A DNA stretch of 36,386 nucleotides, from assembly GCA_965372795.1 (NCBI GenBank), contig CBDVDR010000026.1, forward strand, positions 1 through 36,386, read 5' to 3'. The first letter of the stretch is position 1; every line of letters starts with the position of its first letter. The stretch comes from an uncultured bacterium (GTDB lineage: Bacteria; Zixibacteria; MSB-5A5; GN15; FEB-12). Below, piece by piece: positions 5,608 to 36,386 of this stretch. A program made the position numbers and the translations under genes. The notes below the pieces were generated by a model. The model did not search any database and was not told the DNA's origin. It saw only the letters and a list, made by a program, of their open reading frames with translations.

Positions 5608-5674
5608 CACGAAATAATCACACGAAATAATCACACGAAGTGTGTCAGGTCTCCAAGACACACTTCGTGTGATT
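5608..5674. repeat. 13-bp tandem duplication leading into a perfect 18-bp inverted repeat
   Basis: CACGAAATAATCA x2 (5608-5633); AATCACACGAAGTGTGTC (5629-5646) and GACACACTTCGTGTGATT (5657-5674). Confidence 0.85.
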
Positions 5675-5776
5675 GTTCTCTACTCAAGCGAGTCATTACG
5701 AGCAAGGCAACCATTACAAATTTTGTGAGCGGTAGACGTCATCCATAATTTATATTAAAATTATATATAATTGAAT

Positions 5777-7436: not shown

Positions 7437-8507
7437 TTAGAAAATCAACCATAGGGGTTCACCGGTTCCACGCCAGGTACTGCCATTATATAAATCTTTC
7501 TGGTCATTCAAAATAACAATCTTTGTCTGAATAGAATCTAATCCGGTCATGTTATAGTCATCCGAATATCCACTGTTTAGGGCAACTTTCATAACAAGCG
7601 TATATTTTCCAAGAAGCGGATCATAGTCTGAAACTGTCCGGGTATCCCAGCGGCTGCCGCGATTGGCATCAGAGATATCACCAAAATCAGTATTTATCAT
7701 CCATCCCGGAACTTTCTGTTGATATATCCATCCAGTGGTTACCGGCCAGTAGTAGTAATCAATAATAATTGTCGTATCCTCACCAACAATAGTTGTGTCA
7801 GCATTCATGATTCCAACCGGATCATCAAACCGATTTATTTTCATATCATAATCAAATAAGTAATCAGTAAATTCGCTGGTATCCTGATGCACATATATTG
7901 GTTCGCCTATAACACCCTGTACATTATGATTTTCCCAGGCAATTTTATCATTAGTCGAAGTACCAACAGTATCGAGTTCTAATGAATCGGCACGGCTATA
8001 GATGTACCCTTCGGCAAATCCTGCTCCACCGGTTGTAAGCACCCGCCAGTTGAAAGCATCCCAATTACTTACCGTAGTGTCCGGGTTCTTAAAAAACAGA
8101 TATAACTGGTCTTCGCTTTCAATTGTATTTCTTCGAAAATGAGGTAATCCGATAGAATCGCTGATAAAATAATAATCAGGCCAAACATTAAAAGTTTCAT
8201 CATCCCATTGAATTCTCATGAAAAGGAATCCATTATTAACAATGACTTGCAATAAAGCAGTTTCAGAAACTTTCAATAATTTTGCCGGCATTTTCGGAAG
8301 CACGGCTGCTTTAGTAATATCAATTCTTACCGTATCGACATTGGTCCAAACCGAAGAATTTGCCGAGGTCATCCCAGGGTCACCGGCGGTAGAGTTGATT
8401 TGTATGGTCTTATCTGGAATTACATCAGGTTCTGTTGGACCATCTTTACCACATCCGAGCCATAATGTTAAACTTAATAAACAAATTAGAAGGAAAATCT
8501 TTTTCAT
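7437..8507 (-). CDS. Lipoprotein with a probable DOMON/ethylbenzene-dehydrogenase-gamma-like domain
   Basis: MKKIFLL..LWLG-C lipobox with GGAG RBS; LFMRIQWDD, EDQL, WDAFNW, YTLVMKVALNSG..DD pattern. The domain call is tentative. Confidence 0.6.
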   Translation of the reverse strand: MKKIFLLICLLSLTLWLGCGKDGPTEPDVIPDKTIQINSTAGDPGMTSANSSVWTNVDTVRIDITKAAVLPKMPAKLLKVSETALLQVIVNNGFLFMRIQWDDETFNVWPDYYFISDSIGLPHFRRNTIESEDQLYLFFKNPDTTVSNWDAFNWRVLTTGGAGFAEGYIYSRADSLELDTVGTSTNDKIAWENHNVQGVIGEPIYVHQDTSEFTDYLFDYDMKINRFDDPVGIMNADTTIVGEDTTIIIDYYYWPVTTGWIYQQKVPGWMINTDFGDISDANRGSRWDTRTVSDYDPLLGKYTLVMKVALNSGYSDDYNMTGLDSIQTKIVILNDQKDLYNGSTWRGTGEPLWLIF

Positions 8508-11098: not shown

Positions 11099-13108
11099 AT
11101 GAAGTGGACTATTAAAAACAAACTATTTGCCGGTTTCGGTATTGTTTTAGCCGTCTTACTAACTATTGGCGGGATAGGCTTAAACCAAAGTGCTAATAAT
11201 GTTGAAATGGCAGATGTTAATATGGTCGCCGCGCTTAATGCTGCTGATGGCGCCATGGAATCAAGAATTAATTATTTGAAATTTATCTGGGCTGTAACTG
11301 AAGGCTCTACTGATTTTGATGAAGATGCTCAAATTGAATCATTGGAAAGAAGATCGGGAATTAAAGAAGCATTCGCTGAAACAGTTGAACTTCTGGTCAA
11401 ATCAGGAATTTGCTCTGATAAAATTATTGATGAAATTAATGATGATTTCGCCGGTATGCTTATTGAAGGCAATAAGCTGGTCGAATATTCAAAATTGAAA
11501 AAAGAAGAAATGGAAGAGATTGATGGCGATGTTGTAAATTTCGTTAATCATTTAATTAGTAATGGAGCTTCTGCTAAAGATGTTGACCTTATTTGGTCAT
11601 TTACTATGGCTGTCAATGATTATGCTGCTTATCCTTCTCCTGAAGTAAAAGAAGAATATGATGTTCTTTATAGCAAAATTAAAAATACAAACTATTCTAA
11701 TGGCAAGTCAACTCTTATGAGTGAAGCTGTACTTGCTATTGCAGCTGAACTAATGGAAACTACTGATAAATGGCTTGATTCCAGAGAGTCATTTGATGTT
11801 TATGCTGAAGCTTTGGATGCTGCAATGGAAGTAGTTGAAGAGGGTGACGATACTTTTACCGGTGCTGATGAGTTTGTTGACATTCAGGTCACAACCTTAG
11901 GAGATGAAGCCCGTTTTGCTCAGACCGAGTTTATGATACTTCTTATTGTAGGTTTATTAGTTGGTGTCCTCACTGCCTGGTTTATTGCTAATATGATTAC
12001 AAAACCAATTCAGGCTGTAACTGAAATTTCAAAACATATCGCTCTGGGTGATGTTCAACAGGATATCACAATTAACTCAAAAGATGAAATTGGTGATTTG
12101 GCGAATGCCTTTAGAGATATGATTGCTTATATGACTAATCTGTCAAAAGCTGCTGAAAGTATTGCTAAAAATGATCTTACTTTTAATGTAGTACCTAAAT
12201 CTGAAAAAGACATTTTAGGTAATTCATTTAAAACTATGATTACCAATCTTTCCGCAATTGTTTCTGAATTAAATGGAAGTTCCAATGATGTTGCCTCAGC
12301 TGCGGCTGAAATTTCTACTTCGGCGGAACAGATTTCCAGATCAGCTGAAAATCAGGAACAACAGGTTACTCTGGTTTCAACTGCTGTTGAAGAAATGACA
12401 GCCACAATTGTTGAATCTTCCAAAAATGCTGCTGATGCCTCAGACGGCGCCAAAGGTGCCGCTGATACTGCCGGTACCGGTGGTCAGATTGTAAGTGACA
12501 CAATTGAAGGCATGAATAGAATAGCAACGGTCGTTCGTGAATCTGCTGAAAACATCAATAAATTATCCACTTCTGCTGATCAGATTGGTGAAATCATTGC
12601 TGTTATTGATGATATCGCCGACCAAACTAACCTTCTCGCTTTGAATGCTGCGATTGAAGCTGCCCGTGCCGGTGAACAGGGACGCGGTTTTGCCGTTGTG
12701 GCTGATGAAGTTAGAAAATTGGCTGAAAGAACCGGGAAAGCAACCGGTGAAATCACTGATATGATCAAAGGTATACAAGAGGGAACTCAGGAAGCTGTTA
12801 CCTCAATGGAAACCGGAACCAACGAAGTTAACGCCGGTCGTGACCTGGCTGATAAAGCCGGCAATAGCCTTAGTGAAGTTGTCACCGGTGCTGAACGCGT
12901 TATGGATATGATTCAGCAGATCGCTACCGCTTCAGAACAGCAATCAGTTGCTGCTGAAGAGATTTCCAAAAATATCGAACAGGTTGCCTCAGCGACAAGA
13001 GAATCAGCCGCTGGTTCTCAACAAGCTGCCTCTGCTGCTGAACAACTGAACCGTAATGCTGAAAGTCTCAAAGGGATCGTTTCAAAATTCAAATTAACTG
13101 AAGTCTAA
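11099..13108 (+). CDS. Methyl-accepting chemotaxis protein
   Basis: Two TMs, acidic periplasmic helical domain, [42 protein letters not shown]. Confidence 0.96.
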
Positions 13109-18083: not shown

Positions 18084-18226
18084 CTTGTTCATTGTACCAA
18101 GAAGAAAGAAAAACATTTTATATATAAATTTATTAGCGTAATAGTTATTAACTATATTCAATCAATGAATTTTATCAGTTAAAATTATAATCAAATATTC
18201 TATTAATTATTTTTAATAAAATATAT

Positions 18227-18263
18227 TTCCCAGTGACAAATCTGCCACTGTTGTAACCGATAT
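18227..18263 (+). promoter_or_regulatory. TGACA-N4-TGNCA box, copy 2, overlapping a possible sigma28-like promoter
   Basis: CAGTGACAAATCTGCCACTG; CAAA-N15-ACCGATAT at 18237-18263. Confidence 0.4.
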
Positions 18264-18357
18264 TAATAAATGACATAATTATAATGAGATTTAAGCATCA
18301 TGGTTTACAAATATATGTGAGCACATTTATTTCATATATAAGTAACAGGAAATTACA

Positions 18358-25116: not shown

Positions 25117-25530
25117 TTAACTCGTCTTACAATTTGGACATGATACAATAGAATCACTCTCGTCATGTGAACTACTATGTTTTACAGGAATATTATTCCA
25201 AATGGATGCCATTATCAGGAGAAAAGCACCAGAGTAAAAAATGTAATCGGATAAGCTATAGTATTTCCCGGCAATAATTATCACAGCGCTTGAAAGACCT
25301 ATCCAAAAGGGCAGGTATCCTCTTCTCGTTTGGGCTTTATAGGCTAAGCTAAATAGTGATATACTCAAGAGCATTCCGATAATCAGATAAAAGTATGGTC
25401 CGGTCATCAGGAATCCTAATCCAAGTGATGAAAGTATACCAGCGTAAATTGGCCAGCAGGCCGGACAAGTGGCATTTGGCAGAAGAGCGGCTCCGATCCC
25501 GGGAAGGATTGTAAATATTTTTTTAATCAT
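25117..25530 (-). CDS. merC: MerC-like mercury transport membrane protein
   Basis: CPACWP.YAGILSSLGLGFL, RRGY.PF, four TMs, ASIWN, C-terminal CPNC. Confidence 0.7.
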   Translation of the reverse strand: MIKKIFTILPGIGAALLPNATCPACWPIYAGILSSLGLGFLMTGPYFYLIIGMLLSISLFSLAYKAQTRRGYLPFWIGLSSAVIIIAGKYYSLSDYIFYSGAFLLIMASIWNNIPVKHSSSHDESDSIVSCPNCKTS

Positions 25531-25533
25531 TAT

Positions 25534-25851
25534 TTATTCCTGATTAAATGACAACAATTTCTCTTTTATCAGTTCTTTTGAAGGAAACCCTTCCATCAAT
25601 TCACCATTTTTGTATCGACGGCATCGCATCGAGTATTCTGTAGCTTCGTTTTCAATTGTTTCGAGGTCTTGATCATTGATTCTAATTGAAGGCGAGCCAA
25701 GAAAACGATGTTTTATGATATCCTCATGTTTTTCAATATTGATGACCTCTATTTTATCTTTTAGATCAACCTCTGAAAGGACTTCTTGCAAATTAGTCAG
25801 AGTAATTTCATAATTTGGACAGCCATCAAAATATAGTAATTCTATTTTCAT
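25534..25851 (-). CDS. Thioredoxin-fold protein (DUF2703/DF-family-like)
   Basis: MKIELLYFDGCPNY, FLGSPSIRIN, CRRY. Confidence 0.75.
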   Translation of the reverse strand: MKIELLYFDGCPNYEITLTNLQEVLSEVDLKDKIEVINIEKHEDIIKHRFLGSPSIRINDQDLETIENEATEYSMRCRRYKNGELMEGFPSKELIKEKLLSFNQE

Positions 25852-25852
25852 A

Positions 25853-26269
25853 TTATGTTACTCCTTTAGAAAGTGATTCAATGATAGGACAATTTTTTAT
25901 CGTTTTAGCTTGCTGACATTCATTAACCAGTTTGGTCAAGGTCGTTTTAAGTTTTTTTAAATGCTTCAATTGATTATTTATAATATCCAATTTGCTTTCT
26001 GCGATCTGTCTGACATCACTACACTTATATATTTCACCATCAGCAATGGCTAAAAGTTCTTTTATCTCTGCAAGAGCAAAACCAAGTTCTTTGGCATTTT
26101 TGATAAAGATTAACCGATCTAAATCTTTTTGTGAATATTGCCGGTAGCCTCCATTGGTTCGCACCGGTTCAGCCAGCAAGCCCTTTTTCTCATAGAACCT
26201 TATCGTTTCCTTATTCACTCCGGCAGTGCCGGCTAATTCACTTGTTTTATAAATCTGTGAGTTCATCAT
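25853..26269 (-). CDS. merR: Hg(II)-type MerR regulator
   Basis: ETIRFYE..GL, GYRQY, AKELGF; Cys83/118/127 match the Cys82/117/126 spacing of Hg-MerR. Confidence 0.85.
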   Translation of the reverse strand: MMNSQIYKTSELAGTAGVNKETIRFYEKKGLLAEPVRTNGGYRQYSQKDLDRLIFIKNAKELGFALAEIKELLAIADGEIYKCSDVRQIAESKLDIINNQLKHLKKLKTTLTKLVNECQQAKTIKNCPIIESLSKGVT

Positions 26270-26320: not shown

Positions 26321-26422
26321 CTTTATACAAAAATAATCATATTTTTTTAATATTATATTAGTCATCTTTTGAAATTGATGGTCAGAACTTCGATAAATAA
26401 TCCAAAAACAGAACAACATCTC

Positions 26423-26450
26423 CTAACAAATAGTAATAGCAACGATTAAC
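26423..26450 (+). repeat. TAGTAATAGCAA-type junction box
   Basis: CTAACAAATAGTAATAGCAACGATTAAC; 12-nt core identical to 32876-32887. Confidence 0.5.
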
Positions 26451-26765
26451 AGGAAGTGGCACTTCTTTTTTATCTAACATTCTTGCTCGATTTGTTAGAA
26501 AAATACTAGAAATTAGAGGTTGAATTTGTAGATTCTTATGTACAATGTTCATTGTGCAATGACGGAGCTTTTTCCTTGCTCTCGAATATCAGAATGGATA
26601 TATTTGTATAGTTGTAAAAACGCTTCCTTAATAGGGTATTGTTATATCCAAAGAAGAAATTTAAATAAATAACTAATCTCGATTCTCTATTCAGTGGAGC
26701 ATCACATATTAGAAAATCGCTCTCAAATCTAATAATTGAAGAGCACAAGTAAATCGGAGATCTAT

Positions 26766-27446
26766 ATGATTGAAGTCTTTCTTGGCACTTTCTTGGGTAT
26801 ACTTTTGGGTGTTGCGTCGTCAATGCTTTCTTGGTTTATTCTCTTTCACGTAATAGTCCCTAAAATACGATTCTCTAATTTTATTAGCAGAACCGCAAAA
26901 CCGGATTCTGCGGGGTGCCATCGATATTGGCTAAAGTTTGAGAATTATGGCAGACGAGGCATTGTAGATGTGGAATTTATTTGTCAACTTCGTATCAAGG
27001 GATTGAGACCTCGAGAAAAGACTTCATGGCGTCTCTTTTATCCAAAAATACAATATCGTCGATTACCGTTCTTCCCATCAATTCTTAAGGGAGGTCTCCG
27101 CCAACTGATAGAGATCATTCCAGTATTTGAGGATTTGGATAGTGAGCGATCGTTACCCAATAACTTGAGGGAGATTTATGCAAAAGGGAACCTTCTATTA
27201 GAAGACTTGTTATCAGCAGGAGACAAAGCAGAATTAAGAATCTTTACATACGGTTACGATTCGTTCAGCGGTACAAGAAAAGCATTTCAGTCTCCAGCAT
27301 ATAATTTAGAGTGTATTCAACCTTTTGCATACGAGCTTAATTCTCTGGCACTTAATCCCGATTCAGGTCCTAAGCCAACAGAACCAGAAGAACATTGTTC
27401 TTCTAAAATAGATAAATTAATCAAATCTAATGAAGTTGGAAAGTAG
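26766..27446 (+). CDS. Hypothetical N-terminally membrane-anchored protein
   Basis: GGAG RBS then ATG 26766; hydrophobic N-terminus; no family recognised. Confidence 0.7.
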   Translation: MIEVFLGTFLGILLGVASSMLSWFILFHVIVPKIRFSNFISRTAKPDSAGCHRYWLKFENYGRRGIVDVEFICQLRIKGLRPREKTSWRLFYPKIQYRRLPFFPSILKGGLRQLIEIIPVFEDLDSERSLPNNLREIYAKGNLLLEDLLSAGDKAELRIFTYGYDSFSGTRKAFQSPAYNLECIQPFAYELNSLALNPDSGPKPTEPEEHCSSKIDKLIKSNEVGK

Positions 27447-27798
27447 CCTCCCTGAATATTGCCTAATTGTAAATCATTGAATCTCAACACACTTCGTTTT
27501 GAAGTAGAGCGTTAAGATGATGTAAAAAATGATTTATTGATAGGAAAGTCTATCTATTTACATCCATCTCGCTTTATGGTCTTTTTAGTATTTGTTTGTA
27601 ACTTATGTTACTATTTGCTGGAATTCAAACAAATTCTAAAAATCAAGGATACAAATTTATCTGAATCAGAAGATAAGCCCGATAACAATAATAATAATAG
27701 TTATGATCAAAATTTTGATGATAATACTCGCACGAGCCAATTCAAATTTTTGATAGTAAACTTCAATCACATCATCCTAAAAAAATAGGTAAACCTAT

Positions 27799-27822
27799 AA
27801 AAGCCGGCAAGTGCCGGCTTTT
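27799..27822 (-). terminator. Bidirectional-type terminator after ric
   Basis: AAAAGCCGGCA-ag-TGCCGGCTTTT. Confidence 0.75.
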
Positions 27823-27919
27823 AATTTAGTCGCTGAAAGAAATTTTCATCCCAATCAATTTTAAGTTTGCTTAAACATCAAAACTCAAGACAGATTGAAA
27901 CTAATTATTTGCAAGACTT

Positions 27920-28639
27920 TTAATTCTGTCTGAGCTTCTCCTCAAGAGCAATGGCGCGGGGAAAAAGAATACTGCTTTCTTTGAGAATATGCTGGTGAAT
28001 ATCAAACTCAAGTTCTGCCATGCCGGCTAACAATGCCTGGTAAGTTGTACAGCCATCCTCCGGAACTTTATATCCATTGGTAAGCGATTTCAAATCAGTC
28101 AGCGCATTACCGGCGTTATTGTGTTCCAGCTCCATCACTCGGATCGAGTTGGCAACTTCGTCACTTTTAAATTTTTCATCAGTGATTGTATCCATCTTAC
28201 GAATTATCGGAAACAATATCTGTTCCTCTTTGCCCAGATGCTGAGTCAGTTCAGCTGTCAAAGCGGTGAGCGTTGCGGCTACTTTTGTCAATTCCGGATG
28301 ATTTCCTGAGTGGGCGTTGACCACTTTTTCCATCAGGAAATTCAAACGGGGAAGCTCTTTGTTCAAATAAGCATGATGAGTTGCTTCGATATGATCAGCT
28401 AACACCGTCAGATTGGCTTGGCGCCAATCAGTATCGTTTTCCTCTTGCCCTGCCTCGTCTGATTTTACCAAAGCATTGAGAAGTTCTTTGGGGTCAATCC
28501 CCTTTTCTTTACAGGCTTCACTCAAAGTGGTATGGCCGCCGCAACAGTAATCAAGACCGTACTGTTCAAACACCCGTGACCGGCTGAGTTTTTCGGCTAC
28601 AATTTCACCAATTGGAATTTCTAAACTATTTTCATTCAT
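27920..28639 (-). CDS. ric: Iron-sulfur cluster repair di-iron protein
   Basis: GLDYCCGG, HHAYL, HLGKEEQILFP, MELEH, HQHILKE; GGAG RBS before ATG 28639. Confidence 0.92.
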   Translation of the reverse strand: MNENSLEIPIGEIVAEKLSRSRVFEQYGLDYCCGGHTTLSEACKEKGIDPKELLNALVKSDEAGQEENDTDWRQANLTVLADHIEATHHAYLNKELPRLNFLMEKVVNAHSGNHPELTKVAATLTALTAELTQHLGKEEQILFPIIRKMDTITDEKFKSDEVANSIRVMELEHNNAGNALTDLKSLTNGYKVPEDGCTTYQALLAGMAELEFDIHQHILKESSILFPRAIALEEKLRQN

Positions 28640-28991
28640 CTTATCTCTCCATTTCCAAAAATGTTTAAACAATACTACTATCACAGACTAAATTAGTCAA
28701 TGTTATTAATTAACGAGCATAACTTTGAAAAGTTCAAGATTTATATATTTTAAAGAATTATTAGATATATTCAAGCGGAAAGGCTGCATAATTTAACTTA
28801 TAAATTTTATTACAGGCTTCTAAGGCCCTGCCAAGGTTGTTTTCGCTCAAACGTGGGCTTATAAAGTCTAATTATTCATTGACGGCAAGCAGTTAGCCCT
28901 TTATCTTTAAATGAAAATATCATCACATCTCTGTAAAACTTCAATAAAATATGATCAGTAAATCGGTACTTAATTAATGAAAGGAATTCAA

Positions 28992-29477
28992 ATGAAAAGA
29001 ATTTCCCTGATCCGTTTTGCGTTGGTTATGCTGATTCTGGTGAGTTTGCTTTTTGTTGCATCAGCTTCACCACAGGAAAAGGCCACCACAGAAGCCAAAG
29101 CTTCTTTGTATGATCGACTGGGCGGTATTTACAGTATTGCTTCAGTTGTAGATGAATTTCTAGAAAGGCTGTTGGTAAATGACATTTTGAATGCCAATCC
29201 TATGATTAAAAATGCACGGGATATGGTTCCAAAAGCCGGACTCAAGTTTAGATTAAGCGCTCTGATCTGTCAACTTGCCGGAGGTCCTGAAGTTTATAAT
29301 GGCCGCACCATGAAAGATGCTCACGTTCACTTGAATATTTCCAACGCGGAATGGGATGAAATGGTCAAAGTCTTTGTGCAGACTTTAACCGATTTTAAAG
29401 TTCCCCAGGCAGAACAAGATGAACTTCTCGCTCTGGTTGGACCAACCAAAGGCGACATTGTGACAGCAACCGAGTAG
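28992..29477 (+). CDS. Group I truncated hemoglobin with N-terminal signal peptide
   Basis: SLYDRLGG, GGPEVYNGRTMKDAH (proximal His); MKR plus hydrophobic core plus ASA cleavage site. Confidence 0.88.
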   Translation: MKRISLIRFALVMLILVSLLFVASASPQEKATTEAKASLYDRLGGIYSIASVVDEFLERLLVNDILNANPMIKNARDMVPKAGLKFRLSALICQLAGGPEVYNGRTMKDAHVHLNISNAEWDEMVKVFVQTLTDFKVPQAEQDELLALVGPTKGDIVTATE

Positions 29478-29496
29478 TTGTTCTTCAAAGTGTTTT

Positions 29497-29529
29497 AAAA
29501 AGGCAGATCATTATGTTCTGTCTTTTTTT
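29497..29529 (+). terminator. Rho-independent terminator
   Basis: AAAAAGGCAGA...TCTGTCTTTTTT. Confidence 0.65.
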
Positions 29530-29596
29530 ATGTTTAGAGAGATTTAATATTCCATTATTGGTCTTATAGATTTCTTCTATTTTATTTTATTCAAGT

Positions 29597-29619
29597 TTCC
29601 AATGACAAAAATGGCATTG
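29597..29619 (+). promoter_or_regulatory. TGACA-N4-TGNCA box, copy 3
   Basis: TTCCAATGACAAAAATGGCATTG. Confidence 0.4.
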
Positions 29620-29734
29620 TAGTTTATTATATTAAAAATTGCAATAGCGATATTTTTCCATCCACAAGAACCACTTCTCTGCCAAATATCGTATATTTTT
29701 GTTCTCTAACAAAATATCTTAAAAGGAGAATTAG

Positions 29735-30448
29735 ATGAATTTACCAAATTTAAGACGTGAGACTATATATGGCATGCCGGCTGCCGATCAAATAATGTTT
29801 AACAGGTATTATGTGCTGGGTTATTCTTACTATTTTCGTCAGCCGAAATGGGCGTTGGAAATTGTTGATGCAATAAATCCTGAGGTGGATCGTTCGGATA
29901 ATTTTCGTTCAGATTATAGAATCCCGGAAATATTTCGCGCCGACCGGGTTGATTTTGTTCGGTCCGGCTACGACCGCGGGCATCTGGTGGCAAGTGCAAA
30001 CAAAAATGAAACAGAAATACAAAATAGCGAAACATTTCTTTTATCAAACATGTCACCGCAACTGCCTCGATTTAACCGAGGGATTTGGAAAAAATTAGAA
30101 TCCGAGGTTAGAAACTTAGATAAGAAGCCTGATATCCTGGAGACCTTTGTAATTTGCGGACCTTTATTCTATTTTGATCAACCCGTTGAAATTATAGGAA
30201 CTAATGACTCAAACGATGTTACTATTCCGGTTCCAAATGCATATTTTAAGTCTGTTTTGACTGAGGATAAAAAAGGGAAATTGAAGATGTGGTCTTTTGT
30301 AATGGAAAACAAAGAATCACATGAACCATTAGCTTCGTTTTTGAAACCGACGACCCTTGTTGAAAAAATGGCTGGCATCAAGTTATGGGAACGATTGACA
30401 GGGACGGTAATTGATAAAGAAAAATCAAGAGTTCGCGATATGTGGTAA
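29735..30448 (+). CDS. DNA/RNA non-specific endonuclease (NucA/EndoG type)
   Basis: YDRGHL, TFLLSNMSPQ..FNRGIWKKLE, VP..YFK; no signal peptide. Confidence 0.93.
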   Translation: MNLPNLRRETIYGMPAADQIMFNRYYVLGYSYYFRQPKWALEIVDAINPEVDRSDNFRSDYRIPEIFRADRVDFVRSGYDRGHLVASANKNETEIQNSETFLLSNMSPQLPRFNRGIWKKLESEVRNLDKKPDILETFVICGPLFYFDQPVEIIGTNDSNDVTIPVPNAYFKSVLTEDKKGKLKMWSFVMENKESHEPLASFLKPTTLVEKMAGIKLWERLTGTVIDKEKSRVRDMW

Positions 30449-30671
30449 TTTTGTTTTGAGTTTTGTGCCGTTCAACTTACGGCGACTCTCCCCCGGGCTG
30501 AACTTGATTGGCTTATTCTCTTTTGTTTTGCAAATTTCCTAAATAGAATTCTACAACTTCAATTAGTTGTGTATTAGAGTGAATGGCATTCAACTTTCCT
30601 ATAACCCACAACAATTCTGAAATTATTATAACTTTTATGTAATTTGATAGAATGATTTTGGGGTCGATAGT

Positions 30672-30799
30672 TGGCTCCGCCTCTTTGAATTTAAACCGCC
30701 TGACAACCACACCGTGTGTGCTTCGGGTTATGAGCTTCCTCAATTGTCAATTCAGCAGAAAACTACAAATTCTAATAGATAACCATAGCAATAACTTAG
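30672..30799 (-). repeat. Degenerate tRNA-fMet 3' half with hairpin insert plus linked box, copy 1
   Basis: Minus strand GCTCATAACCCGAAG-CACACACGGTGTGGTT-GTCAGGCGGTTTAAATTC; similarity to copy 2 continues through CAGCAGAAAAC..ATAGCAAT. Confidence 0.75.
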
Positions 30800-30873
30800 C
30801 TAGAGCTTTTATATAGTATATTATCTTTTTTTATGTTTTATTGATTTTGTAAATAATTTATAGAAAGAAGTCT

Positions 30874-31740
30874 ATGTTAAATCAAATCTTTTTAAAATCG
30901 CTATTAAATTTTATTGTTTTAATTTGTTTTGTATTCTCAGTGCAACTGAGCCGTGCCGAAGAATTAATACCGGGTAAAATATCAAAAATCCAATTCGATA
31001 GTAAAGAATTTCCCCCCACATTGTATACCATGTTCACTGGTCAGCCATCAACAGCGACTTTACAGGTGCGGCTTCCGGATGATTATTCTCCTGACAAAAA
31101 ATTCCCTCTTCTGCTGTATGTACCGGGTTTTCATGGTCATGCCGGTGGTAACATTCAAAACGCAATTGACATTGGCGGAACCGAGGGGTGGATAGTTGCC
31201 AGCCTGCCATTATTTAAAAACCGGATTGATCTCAATGAACCGGGCAAAGGGGTCATTATCAGTTTAGAAGATTATACTATGCTCTCCAAATGTTACCGGA
31301 TTATATTAAGCAAACTATTTGAGTTAGTTCCCAATATTGATTCTGATCAAAGTGCCATGGTCGGGTATTCCAATGGAGCGATTGCTACCAGCATTCTCAT
31401 TTCAAATCATAATGAATTTATTCTACAGCATTTTAAGAATTTTTGTATTGTCGATCAGGGAATGTTTCACCTGACCGATCTTCACAAATCAATATCGCGT
31501 GATTGCCGATTCCTGGTCCTTGCTGGCGGCAAAGATGATTTTGGTCGAAATTTAAAAGTCAGAAAATGCGGGTTGCTTTACGACTCATGGCAATTGCTCA
31601 AGGTTGACTTGCAATATGGTATCATGAACGATGTCGGACATGAGCTCGAACCATTTAAAAAATTAATCGGCAAGTGGCTACGCAATAGAGACATCAAAAT
31701 TCATGGTGAACTTAAACCCGGTGATAAAACCAACAACTAG
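30874..31740 (+). CDS. Secreted alpha/beta-hydrolase-fold protein
   Basis: Signal peptide; LPDDY...FPLLLYVPG, GYSNG nucleophile elbow, GHE. Confidence 0.75.
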   Translation: MLNQIFLKSLLNFIVLICFVFSVQLSRAEELIPGKISKIQFDSKEFPPTLYTMFTGQPSTATLQVRLPDDYSPDKKFPLLLYVPGFHGHAGGNIQNAIDIGGTEGWIVASLPLFKNRIDLNEPGKGVIISLEDYTMLSKCYRIILSKLFELVPNIDSDQSAMVGYSNGAIATSILISNHNEFILQHFKNFCIVDQGMFHLTDLHKSISRDCRFLVLAGGKDDFGRNLKVRKCGLLYDSWQLLKVDLQYGIMNDVGHELEPFKKLIGKWLRNRDIKIHGELKPGDKTNN

Positions 31741-31767
31741 AAACATGATTAAGTTAATAACCCGTCA

Positions 31768-31875
31768 TAAACCTGTAGTATTAGCAACTACTTACATCGG
31801 GGCGAAGCGAGTTTAGATTTTCTTATCCCTGAGCGTAGCGAACGGGATTAGAAAACCTCTTCGAAAGAGGCGTAC
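31768..31875 (+). repeat. Junction box fused to a partial GCGAAGC-rich repeat
   Basis: ACCTGTAGTATTAGCAACTACTTAC then GGCGAAGCGAGTTTAGATTTTCTTATCCCTGAGCGTAGCGAACGGGATTAGAAAA and hairpin CCTCTTCGAAAGAGG. Confidence 0.85.
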
Positions 31876-32088
31876 ATTAACATGGATCGTCTGGTATCCA
31901 ATGTCATGCAATATCGATGTTTGATATCGTATAGATAATCGTCCGAGTTATTCTTGTTGAAACAAACTGTGTGATCAGATAAATTAGTCACTACAAATGT
32001 CAGGTTATTTGCTTTAGAATTGTGTACCAACTGAGCTTGTTTATTCAATGACATAATCATCGTTGGTGCAAAGGAGTGTCACATTAGG

Positions 32089-32643
32089 ATGAAGAAGAAA
32101 TCTTATTTATTTAATATAGCATTCGTTGTAACAATCATTACTTTAGCGATCTTCTTGTTCTTCGTATACAAGACAAATAGATTGGATGACGAGATAAGTG
32201 AAAATGAGAAGGCTATATATACACAGTTAGAAATCTTTAATCAAATGGTCTACTTAGAAGGTATCGCTCATGATACTTGGATAAGTTCAAAAATATTGAA
32301 GAGCCTTGGAAAAGAAAATAGCCCAGAATATGAAGATATGGAAAACGATCATCTTGATAGGGCTATAGACTATTTATCTATATTATATAACATCACTGAA
32401 GGTACGTTTCCAAACGAAATTACCATAGCCAGTTGGAGAAGGCTGTCAGGCGAAGAAATAGAAGATAAGAAAATAGACTTCGTAAAACAATTTGAAGAAA
32501 AAGGTGTCTATAAAAGGATATTGGAAGAGAAAAGGGAATTGGTGAATACAAGAAACTGCTACTTTTCATGGTCTTTAGTTTTTCAATTTCTTAATACTGT
32601 CTTGTTCGCTTTCTCGGGATTCTTGTTTGGAAAGAAATCCTAA
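32089..32643 (+). CDS. Hypothetical protein with N- and C-terminal TM helices
   Basis: 184-aa ORF with two hydrophobic ends and a helical middle; no family recognised. Confidence 0.7.
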   Translation: MKKKSYLFNIAFVVTIITLAIFLFFVYKTNRLDDEISENEKAIYTQLEIFNQMVYLEGIAHDTWISSKILKSLGKENSPEYEDMENDHLDRAIDYLSILYNITEGTFPNEITIASWRRLSGEEIEDKKIDFVKQFEEKGVYKRILEEKRELVNTRNCYFSWSLVFQFLNTVLFAFSGFLFGKKS

Positions 32644-32686
32644 ATCTATTTATGGGTGCTTCTTAAACCTAATGTCTATTAAGGCC

Positions 32687-32716
32687 GGGTGCCCCATCCA
32701 CCTGTGGTGGGTTTCT
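32687..32716 (+). repeat. REP-like palindrome related to 5777-5805
   Basis: GGGTGCCCCATCCACCTGTGGTGGGTTTCT. Confidence 0.45.
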
Positions 32717-32772
32717 CTCAAATACAATAAAACGATTATAATGCTGACTAAATAATTCAGGCTAAGCCGGTT

Positions 32773-32895
32773 TGGTAGCGGAAACGTTCCCGAACCCCTG
32801 ACAACCACACGATGTGTGCTTCGGGTTATGAGCTGCCCAGTAGTCCAACAGCAGAAAACAACAAACACTTACCTGTAGTAATAGCAATTAATTAC
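32773..32895 (-). repeat. Degenerate tRNA-fMet 3' half with hairpin insert plus linked box, copy 2
   Basis: Minus strand GCTCATAACCCGAAG-CACACATCGTGTGGTT-GTCAGGGGTTCG...CGCTACCA. Confidence 0.8.
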
Positions 32896-32929
32896 GGAAA
32901 AAACAGTATCCGGTGCTTTCACTTATTAT

Positions 32930-33036
32930 GTTAGAAAATCTGCGAAGCGAAAGCCCTTTCGGGGCGGAAGCGAGTTTAGATTTTCTTATCCCTGAGCGTA
33001 GCAAACGGGGTTAGAAAACTGTTCGAAAGAGGTGTA
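32930..33036 (+). repeat. GCGAAGC-rich structured repeat, one full unit
   Basis: GTTAGAAAATCTGCGAAGCGAAAGCCCTTTCGGGGCGGAAGCGAGTTTAGATTTTCTTATCCCTGAGCGTAGCAAACGGGGTTAGAAAA. Confidence 0.9.
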
Positions 33037-33084
33037 TGTCAAAATCTTGTAGTAGCTTTAGTCATGGAGTTAGATTATATGGAA

Positions 33085-33115
33085 GGGGGTTCGATTCCCC
33101 CCGGCTGTTGTACCA
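33085..33115 (+). other. tmRNA/tRNA-like 3'-end fragment (T-arm)
   Basis: GGGGGTTCGATTCCCCCCGGCT...ACCA; no 5' part upstream. Confidence 0.55.
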
Positions 33116-33174
33116 CTTTCTAAGTTAGTTTTATCACAGCGTTTGTCAAATTCGCTGGGGGTTGAAAACAGAAA

Positions 33175-34389
33175 TTAGTCCAGTATATCATCGATGCTGT
33201 TGAGTCCATACACCGGAGGAATGCCGGACATAAATTCCGAGGTCAGGCTTTCGCTGTTCAATAACAATCTATTCCCCTTGATGATTTTCTCATTGCGCAA
33301 TTGCTGAGCCCAGTCGATGATGCTATCAATGGTGGGAACGTCCAGAGCTAGTTGGTCGGCAATCCATTTTGCGATGCACAGGCCATAATGAATGTCGTCT
33401 GTAAAGAAGCGGTGGTCCTTGTCAATGATCCATTCGCCGCTTTCTAATTGAATGGTGGGTGGTTTGATGGCTCCCAACGTCAGCGAAGTCGTGAATGACT
33501 CGCGAATGTCGGTGTTTTCCGACTGGTATGAGAGTCGCTCAAGACCCAAATAATCAAGCATGTATTGGAAATCCTGCTGAGGATATTTTGCCTTGATGGT
33601 ATCTCGAATCTTAGAGAAATCCGCGTCTAATTCCTGTAGAAGGTCGGCGGATTTTTGGTCATAGTCGCGGTAAAAATAGGGAATATCTTTTTTGTTCGCC
33701 CATTTCCCATCGTATTTGAGAAACAAACCGTAGCAACGCGAAGGATGGATGATTTGGTTGTCGACAGACAGAGTCAGTGACAAAAAATTGGCGGCCTGTC
33801 GGAAAGATCCTTTTTTCAGCCACCGCTCGCAAATATTCTTCAACAAACGGTCATTGAGTTCAGAGAAACGATTCGGCGGTGACACCGCCACGACATTGAG
33901 CTCCTTACAACCATAGGTCACTCCCACCTTACCATACTCAATGACCCGGCAAATCCACGGAATCAAGCCGATGGCAAAGGTGGTGATATTGTTCAGATCG
34001 AATTTCCTCTTGATCTCATCGACCATCCAGTTAAATCCTGCTTGACCATAGATGGTTCCGACAAACACTTCTTTATCTTTCGCAAGATGCGGCGCCAGAT
34101 CGTGAAGAGCTAAGCGATATTTGCTTACAGGCATGCACAAAATCACAAAACTTGCCTGTGGAATGACTTCAGCCGGATTGTCACTGATTTTCGTCAGGGC
34201 ACCACTAAACACTTCCAGGAGTTCCCCATGAATCGAGTGCAACTGAACATCGACCTTCCGGGACCATTCCTTCGGCTTTCGTGTGAGAATGTTGACGTCA
34301 AAACCCGCACCGGAAAGAAAAGGGATCAAAACATGCGCACTACTGCCGCCACCGACAATCGTCACATTTTGTTTTTCTTGTTCAACCAT
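33175..34389 (-). CDS. NAD(P)-dependent opine (octopine/nopaline family) dehydrogenase
   Basis: VTIVGGGSSAH Rossmann motif, PWICR, IIHP, RFFTDDIHYGL, P.ID.II.WAQ. Confidence 0.85.
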   Translation of the reverse strand: MVEQEKQNVTIVGGGSSAHVLIPFLSGAGFDVNILTRKPKEWSRKVDVQLHSIHGELLEVFSGALTKISDNPAEVIPQASFVILCMPVSKYRLALHDLAPHLAKDKEVFVGTIYGQAGFNWMVDEIKRKFDLNNITTFAIGLIPWICRVIEYGKVGVTYGCKELNVVAVSPPNRFSELNDRLLKNICERWLKKGSFRQAANFLSLTLSVDNQIIHPSRCYGLFLKYDGKWANKKDIPYFYRDYDQKSADLLQELDADFSKIRDTIKAKYPQQDFQYMLDYLGLERLSYQSENTDIRESFTTSLTLGAIKPPTIQLESGEWIIDKDHRFFTDDIHYGLCIAKWIADQLALDVPTIDSIIDWAQQLRNEKIIKGNRLLLNSESLTSEFMSGIPPVYGLNSIDDILD

Positions 34390-34551
34390 GTTTCACCTTA
34401 TTTGTCTGCAATTCTCAAAACGACAGAACTTTCCTTAACATTATCCGCTACGAGTAATTGCGTTTTTCATTCATACAACTCACCCAGATACATTATACTA
34501 TATTAATACAAAACATTAATATGAACATTAGATTAGCGTACAACTCCCGAT

Positions 34552-34626
34552 AACACTTTGAAAGCAGATATGTAGAGATGGGCGACATTCAGCAATCGAA
34601 TCTTCAACATCTGCTTTCAAAATGTT
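34552..34626. repeat. 75-bp imperfect inverted repeat
   Basis: AACACTTTGAAAGCAGAT...ATCTGCTTTCAAAATGTT (17/18 paired), extendable inward. Confidence 0.75.
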
Positions 34627-34646
34627 TCCTATACCGTGAATCAAAT

Positions 34647-35744
34647 TTAAATGACGTTTTTACGTGCGAGTTTTTCAACATTAAGCAGCGATAATTGGGA
34701 GGTCGCTCTATCAAGTTGATCCAGAAGTGCTTTTACTCGCAGGTCACAGCAACTGTTCCGGCAGAAAACACCTTCTTCAAATTGCCATTCTCTATTGGAA
34801 TAGTCATATAAATATCGACCCGGCTTGCCGTCTATGTACATTTGAGACTCTATGGAGGCAGCAAAGTGTGATTGAATTTCGTTGACGACAAAATCTCCAT
34901 CAGGAGTCTCAAAGATGTCCACATTCATCGCCGTGTATCCGGCATTGTCTGTTAACTCACGAATAAAGTCCAACAGTTCAATAGGAGGATTATACCATCC
35001 CACTTTTCCGGAACCACTATGAAATGCCCCATCTGCAAGTTTCTGATGTCCGAAATATGATTCACCGATTCGAATCATTCGCCATTCGGCTACTTCGGGT
35101 AGGAATTTCTGAAACAGGATGTTACCCCATTCACTATCCCGACTGTCGGCTCCTCGGCAGACAAGTCCATTCCCGAAACGATCATTTACATATTGTAAAA
35201 GTTCAGTACGTTCATAAAAAATTTCCACACCTGCACTTCTGGAACCCATATCATGTTTGACTACAATCGGTAAGTCAGCATCTTTTGCAAATTCCAGCGC
35301 TTGTTCGTGTGAGTAGAAGACCCATGTTTTCGTATGTGGTATGTTATGCGATTCCAGCCAATAAGACATCCGCAGTTTACTCTCATTCAACCATACTTCA
35401 TCGTAGGTTGGATAAATCGTCTTATGCATTTCATCAACTATTATTTTCAATCGTTCGTCAAACATACGCTTCTGTATGCTCACTTTGAAAGAGGGCCAAA
35501 CAAGAAAAGCGTCACATCTACAGTCCCGTACGACATGAATCCAGTCAGAGCCAGAGATGTCAATAGTCTTGTAGCGAACCCCTAAGTCTTCACATGCGGC
35601 GATATATGGTAAATGGTTGTTATCAAACTCTTCGATTATGCCAAGCACGTGCTGCGATTTGCTTCGAAGTGGGAGCACAGGTTTGATTCTTTGATGAAAA
35701 TCAGACAACGGCGGTATAGTTGCATTAGCATTGTACTTGTTCAT
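34647..35744 (-). CDS. ATP-grasp (RimK-like) ligase
   Basis: ESK..M, IPHTKT, LPIVVK..GSRSAGV, FQKFL..EWRM, VDIF...VNEIQ. Confidence 0.8.
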   Translation of the reverse strand: MNKYNANATIPPLSDFHQRIKPVLPLRSKSQHVLGIIEEFDNNHLPYIAACEDLGVRYKTIDISGSDWIHVVRDCRCDAFLVWPSFKVSIQKRMFDERLKIIVDEMHKTIYPTYDEVWLNESKLRMSYWLESHNIPHTKTWVFYSHEQALEFAKDADLPIVVKHDMGSRSAGVEIFYERTELLQYVNDRFGNGLVCRGADSRDSEWGNILFQKFLPEVAEWRMIRIGESYFGHQKLADGAFHSGSGKVGWYNPPIELLDFIRELTDNAGYTAMNVDIFETPDGDFVVNEIQSHFAASIESQMYIDGKPGRYLYDYSNREWQFEEGVFCRNSCCDLRVKALLDQLDRATSQLSLLNVEKLARKNVI

Positions 35745-36018
35745 TCAATAAATCCATTCTTATTAAAAATAAAAATAAATATCTTTCCGTTCGAAATATC
35801 CCAAGACAAATTGGGTCGTATTCTCACGGTTTTCCACAAGAGGAATCACCAGACGAATTTAACTCGTCAGTTATCTGTAGCGAATGTGGAAAACATTTTG
35901 AAGTTTTGGGGGGCTAATGAATCAGTCCGTCAAAATCTCATAGTGAATATATCATAGAAATATTGCAAATTCAAGTCTTATCTTATCGAATCACGGAAAA
36001 ACTCCGTAACTAGGTTTG

Positions 36019-36031
36019 TATCAAGTAGTTA
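36019..36031 (+). promoter_or_regulatory. IHF-consensus site
   Basis: TATCAAGTAGTTA matches WATCAA-N4-TTR (another match, AATCAACAAGTTA, at 1182-1194). Confidence 0.4.
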
Positions 36032-36096
36032 AGTCAGATGTAGGGTAATCTTCAGGATTGTTAGATAATCAGAAATCTGAAGGAAATCCCACTTAT

Positions 36097-36129
36097 AAAA
36101 AAATCCCCAAAGCTTTTAGGCTTCAGGGA
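36097..36129 (-). terminator. Rho-independent terminator following the tRNA 3' fragment
   Basis: Minus strand TCCCTGAAGC-ctaaaa-GCTTTGGGGA-T7; two G-U pairs make the full stem minus-strand specific. Confidence 0.75.
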
Positions 36130-36139
36130 CTTAAATTTC

Positions 36140-36225
36140 GTAGCGAGGAGGGGATTTCATCAGTCCTAAAGCAAAGCGTGGAGAAACCACTAACAACCAC
36201 ACAATGTGTGCTTCGGGATTTGAGC
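36140..36225 (-). repeat. Degenerate tRNA-fMet 3' half with hairpin insert, copy 3
   Basis: Minus strand GCTCAAATCCCGAAG-CACACATTGTGTGGTT-GTTAGTGGTTTC-[about 24 nt]-GAAATCCCCTCCTCGCTAC. Confidence 0.75.
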
Positions 36226-36252
36226 TTGTTTTAGCCTGTTCTTGCTTGTTTT

Positions 36253-36386
36253 GTTAGAAAATCTGCGAAGCGAAAGCCACATCGTGGCGAAGCGAGTTTA
36301 GATTTTCTTATCCCTGAGCGAAGCGAACGGGGTTAGAAAATCTGCGAAGCGAAAGCCACATCGTGGCGAAGCGAGTTTAGATTTTC
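36253..36386 (+). repeat. Tandem 79-bp GCGAAGC-rich repeat, running off the window end
   Basis: Unit 36253-36331; second unit from 36332 is identical as far as visible. Confidence 0.92.

Follow-up and report, generated by a model that had tools for sequence, protein, structure and literature searches.

At the end of a contig from an uncultured Zixibacteria bacterium, a row of unrelated genes is punctuated by pieces of an initiator tRNA gene (tRNA-fMet) and by repeats, and the question raised by this locus is how such a row came to be built. The contig (CBDVDR010000026.1 of assembly GCA_965372795.1; GTDB lineage Zixibacteria, MSB-5A5, GN15, FEB-12) has 36,386 nucleotides (nt) and was analyzed in its entirety; we will refer to this whole stretch as the window. 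It is contig C26 of an assembly of 3.35 Mb in 69 contigs, labelled G000 among the genomes compared. An original prediction, concerned with the final 5.7 kb, had proposed a gene-capture hotspot of an undescribed kind, integron-like in layout. Within the window the array occupies at least 26.4–36.4 kb. We consider it probable that this region represents the distal portion of a row of integrase-less cassettes stacked in tandem at the initiator tRNA gene, which would have arisen by site-specific accretion of integrative elements and their subsequent decay, leaving remnants that resemble cis-mobilizable elements (CIMEs).

Displaced tRNA pieces and their anchor gene

Three copies of a 41-nt repeat (family A; 80–93% identical) lie on the same strand at 30699–30739, 32797–32837 and 36189–36229. 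Every copy contains a 15-nt stretch (30721–30735, 32819–32833 and 36211–36225) that matches the anticodon loop and 3′ stem of tRNA-Met in reverse complement, exactly in copies 1 and 2 and with two differing positions in copy 3. A second repeat (family B) was found at 31794–31858, 32930–33021 and 36253–36386, the last copy being a 79-nt tandem that runs up to the contig end and went unreported by Tandem Repeats Finder. A blastn search of the 69 contigs with seven pieces of these repeats gave matches only on C26 and at C10:1–2054, indicating that the repeats belong to this locus and are not scattered over the genome. The single orientation for each class of element that had been noted originally also held, all copies of the repeats pointing the same way.

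The 3′ end of C26 overlaps the start of contig C10 by 22 nt, with a repeat found at no other contig end. An intact tRNA-fMet on the minus strand had been anticipated past position 36386, and ARAGORN located an intact tRNA-Met(CAT) gene at C10:2152–2228, minus strand. Its orientation matches that of the displaced pieces, i.e., the direct repeats of the tRNA 3′ part at 30721–30735, 32773–32781/32819–32833 and 36138–36146/36211–36225. By inspection it carries the hallmarks of an initiator (a mismatch at 1:72 and an anticodon stem closed by three G-C pairs), which are absent from the two other CAT-anticodon genes; it is the sole initiator-type tRNA gene of the assembly.

An integrase and its attachment sites in relatives

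The most complete of the repeat units, junction 2 (32770–33050), was used as a DNA query against 60 relatives, probably Zixibacteria (the labels G001, G005, etc., denote the phylum genomes compared), and against this genome; it matched in 22 of the 61, the searches of relatives scoring 2–11 candidates per genome. The matching unit is cleaner in the relatives. It starts with the last 46–47 nt of tRNA-fMet, or with 31 nt plus a 16-nt hairpin insert, continues with a ~95-nt arm in which an invariant inverted repeat of 10/11 base pairs (bp) surrounds a 37-nt loop, and ends in a tail where a 9-nt motif stands twice in direct orientation at a distance of 11 nt.

One example of what such a unit bounds was found in G005, where the same junction (a true tRNA 3′ half plus the arm) lies 26.5 kb from the intact tRNA-fMet. 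A tyrosine integrase of 436 amino acids (aa) with Phage_integrase and SAM-like domains sits directly against the tRNA gene. Its reading frame passes through the tRNA terminator and stops in the T-loop, so that the last ~40 codons are the other arm of the attachment (att) site. This P arm (the last ~35–45 integrase codons) also serves as the tRNA terminator and holds the same pair of 9-nt motifs as the end of the opposite P′ arm. The interval carries genes for a Fic protein, a DNA methylase with a ResIII helicase, ArdC, two Replic_Relax proteins and a TraG-like coupling protein, together with defence-type genes. A similar layout was seen in G121 (an element of ~26.8 kb) and in G059 (~30.7 kb). 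In tblastn searches the last 33–37 integrase codons were recognizable at C26:36058–36156 and C10:2060–2170, as well as at junctions of G031, G044 and G015. The succession of tRNA half, box and repeat reported for the window is therefore the P-core-P′ junction of an integrative element specific for tRNA-fMet, and the repeats are att-type junctions of a tyrosine integrase that adjoins this tRNA in relatives. A complete site measures ~330 bp, with a P′ arm of ~170 nt and a P arm, the 3′ coding tail of the integrase, of ~95 nt; the family B repeat is the tail of the P′ arm carrying an extra insert of the 79-nt type. The responsible elements form an integrative family of this phylum, probably conjugative or mobilizable, with a lambda-type tyrosine integrase.

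Identity between junction and tRNA stops in the anticodon loop, which suggests a crossover at that point; copies bearing the hairpin insert could be reconciled only with a crossover around the T-loop, or with an insertion that followed displacement. The paired 9-nt repeats are predicted, from their sequence and placement, to be arm-type binding sites of the integrase.

The cognate integrase stands beside the tRNA in G005, G015, G121, G059 and G041, and a truncated copy does so in G129. None was found in the genome of the window, whose four PF00589 matches lie elsewhere and are at best 25–35% identical to the G005 integrase, and tblastn revealed no remnant in this genome beyond the 37 codons. 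That the window holds no recombinase, as stated originally, was confirmed, and there is none at C10:1–20000 either; neither integrase nor transfer genes were detected inside the cargo units by Pfam, NCBIfam or tblastn with the integrase. Across the phylum the integrase is present in 35 of 285 genomes (E ≤ 1e-40; 56–100% identity), scattered over ten families. Among these 35 sequences, 23 are near full length (two with internal stops) and 12 are partial. All 12 partial ones keep the 3′ end, starting from residue 88, 157, 181, 234, 256, 261, 266, 284, 292, 298, 330 or 338, and three of them start at a contig end.

Anatomy of the array

An nhmmer profile built from 24 att copies of relatives matched as far left as 26423–26515, so that the array begins at least there. 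From left to right its features, including open reading frames (ORFs), are:

26423–26515, plus strand: remnant 0, the oldest recognizable, a decayed P′ arm with tail motif (nhmmer, profile positions 149–252, E 1.4e-5)
26736–30448, mixed strands: cargo segment 0, four genes (ORFs, Pfam)
26736–27446, plus strand: 236-aa ORF of cargo 0
27920–28684, minus strand: ScdA_N/hemerythrin protein of cargo 0 (Pfam)
28977–29477, plus strand: bacterial-like globin of cargo 0 (Pfam)
29735–30448, plus strand: DNA/RNA non-specific endonuclease (Endonuclease_NS) of cargo 0 (Pfam)
30640–30885, plus strand: junction 1, with degenerate tRNA 3′ part, 16-nt hairpin insert (30705–30720), core (30721–30735) and degenerate P′ arm
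30874–31740, plus strand: cargo 1, a 288-aa secreted-looking protein (no Pfam or NCBIfam family)
31771–31885, plus strand: junction 1b, 5′-truncated, with inner P′ arm (31771–31795), half of the 79-nt insert and tail motif
31848–32060, minus strand: doubtful 70-aa ORF
32089–32643, plus strand: cargo 1b, a 184-aa protein with hydrophobic ends (no family match)
32770–33050, plus strand: junction 2, the most complete (profile E 5e-30), with acceptor-like 3′ end (32773–32781), hairpin insert (32803–32818), core (32819–32833), P′ arm (32834–32929), genome-specific insert of the 79-nt type (32930–33009) and tail motif (33010–33050)
33052–36034, minus strand: cargo 2, a single mobile block of opine-dehydrogenase gene, inverted repeat and ATP-grasp gene
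33175–34389: opine-dehydrogenase-family gene (Octopine_DH) of cargo 2 (Pfam, NCBIfam)
34647–35744: ATP-grasp gene of cargo 2, weak family match (Pfam, NCBIfam)
36056–36386, plus strand: junction 3, with P arm, i.e., integrase 3′ coding tail (36058–36156), tRNA-terminator hairpin (36101–36132), acceptor-like end (36138–36146), T-loop insert, hairpin insert (36195–36210), core (36211–36225), shortened P′ arm and 79-nt tandem (36253–36386) up to the contig end
C10, after junction 3: isochorismatase-family gene (50% GC against 38% for the genome) and IS3-type helix-turn-helix (HTH) fragment
C10 ~1905–2054: junction 4, truncated
C10:2054–2152: “empty” unit of ~100 nt, P′ arm fused directly to P arm, followed by the tRNA

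The tail motif of junction 1 contains the start codon (ATG at 30874) of the next ORF, junction 1b has neither core nor tRNA part, and the P arm of junction 3 matches residues 404–436 of the G005 integrase with 64% identity (tblastn). Cargo 2 is bounded by att sites at either end (junctions 2 and 3), cargo 1 at its left end; junction 1b and the C10 copy are truncated. Overall the junctions of this genome are eroded, one having lost the core, one the arm hairpin and one most of the arm. The cargo genes are unrelated, as had been noted: Endonuclease_NS, two proteins without family, Octopine_DH and a weak ATP-grasp match in Pfam and NCBIfam. The labels “hydrolase” and “2-TM”, earlier given to the 288-aa and 184-aa proteins, find no support in the families of these databases. 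A terminator-like hairpin (32693–32711) follows the 184-aa ORF.

Several smaller elements of the original description did not hold. Boxes resembling sites of the integration host factor (IHF) are at chance level: its consensus, WATCAANNNNTTR, matches the window 6 times (5.2 expected), a number attained in 41 of 100 shuffles, and the array region contains a single match (36019–36031). The supposed end of a transfer-messenger RNA (tmRNA) is just a 17-nt T-arm hairpin at 33085–33101, scoring 16.7 bits against a gathering score of 47 in Rfam, and the acceptor part differs from that of the tmRNA of this genome (C8:23049–23402); a permissive Rfam scan of 30400–36386 returned this T-arm only. We rejected it as the scar of an ssrA island, since it travels with the opine-dehydrogenase block in G047. 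The 79-nt repeat, described as structured, folds no better than its shuffles (z −0.75, −0.59 and −0.17). No RNA genes were detected in the window by ARAGORN or by Rfam at gathering thresholds, and terminator-like sites number 9 against 5.5 expected.

Arrays and junctions across the phylum

Similar arrays were found in relatives. The loci G015:C4, G031:C4, G031:C5, G044:C44, G129:C10 and G129:C5, picked for their multiple matches and not as a random sample, hold two to five junctions each. Together with those of this genome they give 23 gaps between junctions, of 964–5975 nt, and 37 of the 46 ORFs of at least 100 aa found between junctions are co-oriented with them. Two three-junction arrays (G129:C5:183000–202999 and G031:C5:35000–54999, loci L076 and L025) have no tRNA-fMet within those 20 kb, which indicates that arrays can lie away from the anchor gene, perhaps by rearrangement between junction copies.

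The motif GTTAGAAAANNGTTAGAAA, located at the P′ end and in the integrase tail, was detected with at most one mismatch in 153 of 285 genomes, against 0–1 per genome for the reversed control. By our own count 30 genomes have at least four copies, of which seven have any integrase match and two, G041 and G015 (the latter with one internal stop), a near full-length one, a comparison that is rough since the motif also marks sister att families. An intact integrase is rare among array-rich genomes, which speaks against integron-like arrays served by an enzyme of their own host. When the G005 junction was searched for phylum-wide, scoring two candidates per genome, 249 of 285 genomes matched, many by the tRNA part only; among 150 of the 369 matches listed, those reaching the arm came from roughly 80 genomes (counted by eye) of at least ten families. 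The exact arm hairpin in its 57-nt form is present at 21 loci, 15 of them assigned to Candidatus Zixiibacteriota/Zixibacteria and 6 to Ignavibacteria-type organisms, Calditrichota or simply “bacterium”. With other spacings it was found at seven loci of unrelated taxa, the chance expectation for such a palindromic pattern.

Junctions of a sister att family are also present in the genome of the window, at C13:~49900–50240, C3:~78870–79290 and ~83140–83550, and C1:~68170–68500. They contain the last 19–22 nt of tRNA-Ser(CGA), tRNA-Ser(GGA) or tRNA-Gln(CTG), with identity stopping in the T-loop, followed by a different arm of ~125 nt that ends in the tail motif common to the tRNA-fMet junctions. 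They lie 1.9–11.7 kb from the matching intact tRNA gene, in matching orientation, so that at least four tRNA loci of this genome hold such bounded segments.

Mobility of the cargo

Blocks of cargo have moved horizontally between genomes. Over 3020 nt the opine-dehydrogenase/ATP-grasp block shares 86.5% identity with G047:C25:11179–8171, in a genome of another family (93% over the first 1569 nt), and over 2508 nt it shares 85.4% with G005; for comparison, core genes on the right-hand side of the tRNA reach 68–73% between genera within a single family. G015 and G041, members of different families, have in common a PNPOx-MarR-ATC_hydrolase cassette (85.8% identity), and the endonuclease gene of cargo 0 has 77% DNA identity to a gene inside the G044 array. 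The same-genus genome G001 (540 contigs), searched at the DNA level with 26400–36386, has the arm only and none of the 10 kb of cargo, in agreement with the expected variability of the cargo among relatives. The cargo has a GC content of 32–50%, against 38% for the genome.

The breakpoints of the cargo had been expected to fall in the repeats, and in the cases examined (three comparisons plus metagenome contigs) they lie at the repeat edges. Metagenome contigs that share the tail motif diverge at 33042–33051 into at least four different continuations. These contigs, from four runs on 29500–36386, are short, fall mainly in 32.7–35.7 kb and bridge no junction. One weak joint, which skips 32897–33098 in one contig with 27 nt on its shorter side, we left uninterpreted.

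No att copy was found near the G047 block in the 20 kb examined. In this locus (G047:C25, L068) the block is flanked at ~8090–8170 and ~11180–11260 by inverted repeats of ~70 nt in place of att junctions, each with its own CCCACC...GGTGGG hairpin, which possibly represent the termini of a mobile unit of some other type.

Origin of the array

By the sequence of events that we favor, elements would integrate at the core in the tRNA-fMet anticodon stem-loop, their integrase using the 9-nt repeat pairs of both arms, one helical turn apart, as putative arm-type sites. Each integration would restore the tRNA and displace the previous 3′ half outward, and deletions would later strip the integrase and transfer genes, leaving cargo between two junctions as CIME-like remnants. 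The graded integrase remnants, the eroded junctions and the absence of a cognate integrase point to decay, and the order of events would be accretion followed by decay, the array now being presumably immobile in this genome. The notion that one or two genes are gained at a time is not borne out: elements of 26–31 kb and graded remnants fit large gains followed by deletion at least as well.

Several observations weigh against this explanation. Sizes look bimodal, with 23 gaps below 6 kb against three intact elements of 26–31 kb and none between, in a sample that is small and hand-chosen. The edges of the cargo are sharper than random decay predicts: those of the opine-dehydrogenase block (33052 and 36034 against G047, 36033 against G005) fall exactly between tail motif and P arm, and homology of the PNPOx cassette spans from one tail motif to the next. 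In all four junction copies here, and in no fewer than nine copies of relatives, a 16-nt hairpin occupies the variable-loop position of the tRNA; a P arm of this kind would damage the tRNA on restoring it, and accretion leaves the hairpin unexplained. An insert of the private 79-nt type is common to three junctions of this genome, which indicates copying or homogenization among junctions and not independent arrivals. The metagenome contigs, short and bridging no junction, contain no excision product or circular form. Besides, C26 and C10 would be contiguous judging by the 22-nt overlap and the exclusivity of the repeat, with no spanning read.

Some of these points would be expected from an active, integron-like exchange, in which units of 1–6 kb (cargo plus a complete attP-like junction of ~330 bp) are excised as circles and then returned to the tRNA, or to a junction already in place, by an integrase that a visiting element provides in trans, so that arrays gain and shuffle cassettes singly. 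We regard this as unlikely, although a good deal speaks for it: junctions between cassettes often keep both arms, cargo homology between genomes begins and ends at junction edges, the tail motif at 33042–33051 is followed by at least four different sequences in metagenome contigs, the same cassettes have different neighbors in different families, “empty” units exist at C10:2054–2152 and in G044, most ORFs between junctions (37 of 46) are co-oriented, and there is the apparent gap in size between units below 6 kb and elements of 26–31 kb. However, no integrase resides beside the arrays, near full-length copies being present in 2 of the 30 motif-rich genomes (a rough figure, as said), the junctions of this genome are eroded, the graded integrase remnants indicate decay, co-orientation likewise prevails within the intact G005 element, and no circular junction was seen in the short metagenome contigs, none of them bridging. 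It is equally doubtful that Zixibacteria as a phylum run a tRNA-anchored exchange of cassettes, with units moved singly by visiting integrases, in which the tRNA-fMet arrays and the sister arrays at tRNA-Ser and tRNA-Gln would take part; were this true, the covarying hairpin and the GCGAAGC-type inserts of displaced copies would disarm or tune the junctions. The private features shared by the junctions (the 79-nt-type insert and a CACAC/GTGTG hairpin) suggest copying within the lineage, and, without any site-specific recombination, repeated segmental duplication of the tRNA 3′ region with unequal homologous crossing-over, unrelated DNA being inserted between copies, would account for them; a deletion between two tail-motif copies would explain the “empty” units too. 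Yet the core-adjacent arm is not tRNA-flanking DNA but a conserved element end, present in at least ten families, that bounds integrase-bearing elements, and in relatives the T-stems of displaced halves show compensating changes relative to the resident tRNA, as if each half had been borne by an element, which makes this origin very improbable.

The structure of the ~170-nt conserved unit could also be read as that of an expressed RNA, or of a promoter or leader module for the downstream genes, its tie to recombination being incidental. The canonical arm does fold far better than its shuffles (z −5.63; none of 200 as good), three inner pairs are compensatory between two arm variants across 41 copies, the tail motif with a purine-rich stretch and ATG provides the start codon of the 30874 ORF, and cargo usually begins at most about 100 nt from the motif. 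Against this, the outer 11 pairs are invariant in the 41 copies and so silent on structure, no Rfam family matches, sigma-70-type promoter matches are at chance (20 against 18.7 expected) with none on the tail motif, and the unit is always attached to the tRNA 3′ part and bounds integrase-bearing elements; we give this reading very little credit. The end of the contig within a tandem repeat, in an assembly of 69 contigs, could finally evoke a chimera produced by repeat collapse in a metagenome-assembled genome. This is hardly credible, considering that at least five other genomes have the same architecture well inside long contigs and that the boundaries between cargo and junction recur in independent metagenome contigs.

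Comparison with known systems

The original prediction of an undescribed system has precedents, as both tandem accretion and cis-mobilizable remnants without integrase at tRNA or tmRNA genes have already been published (PMC5704250, PMC3146451). The first of these articles sets out a model in three steps, namely integration, decay to a CIME and arrival of the next element at the site holding the gene end, with ICESt1 and ICESt3 of Streptococcus thermophilus as examples of such accretion at the 3′ ends of tRNA or other genes (PMC5704250). In the second, islands at ssrA of Dehalococcoides are described as tandem, bounded by repeats of the gene 3′ end and in 15 cases devoid of an integration module; they were interpreted as cis-mobilizable, and the recombinase gene overlaps the 3′ end of its target (PMC3146451). 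Model and precedent fit most of what is seen here, and the array is a new instance of known accretion and decay, not an integron.

Like the Streptococcus CIMEs, the units described here lack integration and transfer genes, are bounded by att sites and are stacked at the 3′ end of the target, while functional relatives occupy the same site elsewhere. Unlike them, they belong to another phylum and another integrase family, target the initiator tRNA and measure ~1–6 kb, with up to five or six in a row; their P arm is the integrase's own coding tail and their junctions bear extra small inserts. With the Dehalococcoides islands they share the tandem arrangement at a single-copy essential small-RNA gene, a recombinase overlapping the target, many units without integration module and strain-specific cargo. 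For those islands the recombinase is a large serine enzyme, the repeat measures 20 bp and the target is the tmRNA gene, whereas here we find a tyrosine integrase, tRNA-fMet and a tRNA 3′ part of ~31–47 nt followed by ~265 nt of conserved arms.

The comparison with integrons holds for the layout, which is a one-directional row of mostly co-oriented unrelated genes with a recombination site after each and a fixed anchor. It fails for the enzyme: the integrase is not of the IntI type (67.5 bits against a cut-off of 265, TIGR02249), this genome has no resident integrase, most array-rich genomes have no intact copy, and the junctions, whose homology is to one another and to a tRNA gene with conserved arms, are unlike the imperfect palindromes that make up attC sites. 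The phages lambda and HK022 share arm sites and differ in core specificity. The elements described here resemble them in having catalytic Phage_integrase and SAM-like core-binding domains and, judging from the repeats, direct 9-nt motifs on both arms far from the core; the sister att family at tRNA-Ser and tRNA-Gln, which shares the arm motif and has a different core, is a further parallel. The N-terminal arm-binding domain is merely hinted at (Arm-DNA-bind_4, E 0.098, below threshold).

A search of open-access full texts and preprints found no literature specific to Zixibacteria on this integrase and tRNA, which is not proof of absence. Points of interest are the sole initiator tRNA as target, the att arm that doubles as coding sequence and terminator, the small and numerous remnants, their distribution over a phylum about which little is known, and the odd inserts. 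The result maps the anatomy of an integration hotspot in a phylum represented mainly by metagenome bins, and the arm hairpin and the 19-nt tail motif provide practical markers of variable gene content in Zixibacteria genomes and marine-sediment metagenomes. If cassettes were mobilizable one by one, they would represent a second, integron-independent route to cassette arrays.

Inserts in the displaced copies

The stems of the variable-loop hairpin (5 bp) differ by lineage yet stay complementary (CACAC/GTGTG, CACAT/ATGTG and CACCT/AGGTG). The hairpin is missing from the eight intact tRNAs inspected and from the three junctions that close intact elements on the side away from the tRNA, and the core region that bears it folds no better than shuffles. 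Near-identical palindromes of the CACAC-TTCG-GTGTG type, resembling this hairpin, were observed in intergenic DNA away from the array, at 5626–5677 of the window and on C10 (locus L001) at 2655–2680 and 2748–2775.

Short GC-rich inserts of the CTGAG-G-A-CGAA type, which look like GCGAAGC mini-hairpins, were found in the T-loop of displaced halves of G015, G129 and this genome (window 36146–36190; L001:1950–2010; L022:9230–9290 and 18220–18290; L048:~500–560) and never in an intact tRNA gene. In the genome of the window the motif is also part of the P′ arm, as the 79-nt unit, and genome-wide it occurs only at this locus and at one other place. The insert of the 79-nt type was seen in none of the 60 relatives, for which the query did contain it, and metagenome contigs that reach 33010 from the left have a canonical arm without it.

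Flanks and neighboring elements

From position 1 to ~25 kb the window contains ordinary chromosomal genes, with Pfam matches to YajC, deformylase, formyltransferase, RNase E/G, chemotaxis proteins and an S8 protease. Directly to the left of remnant 0, at 25117–26269 on the minus strand, are a MerR-family regulator, a 105-aa ORF and a MerC-like membrane protein, which may also be part of the variable region. The genes on the left flank of the G005, G031 and G021 junctions have no homologues near the C26 locus, and the ancestral left boundary could therefore not be fixed.

On the other side of the tRNA, at C10 2196–2595 (L001), there is a small GIY-YIG ORF (Pfam E 1e-16) with a weak match to a group I intron endonuclease. 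It sits between two copies of the tRNA 5′ part with its upstream flank, of which the outer one has a short hairpin in place of the D-arm. Homologues with 45–48% identity were found in junction-bearing loci of two other genomes (L012 and L062). Farther along the contig, C10:63000–66240 is another integrative element, in which the reading frame of a large serine recombinase ends inside tRNA-Ser(TGA) at 66152–66237; a tyrosine recombinase (PF00589, 51 bits) and an HTH gene are located just upstream of it.

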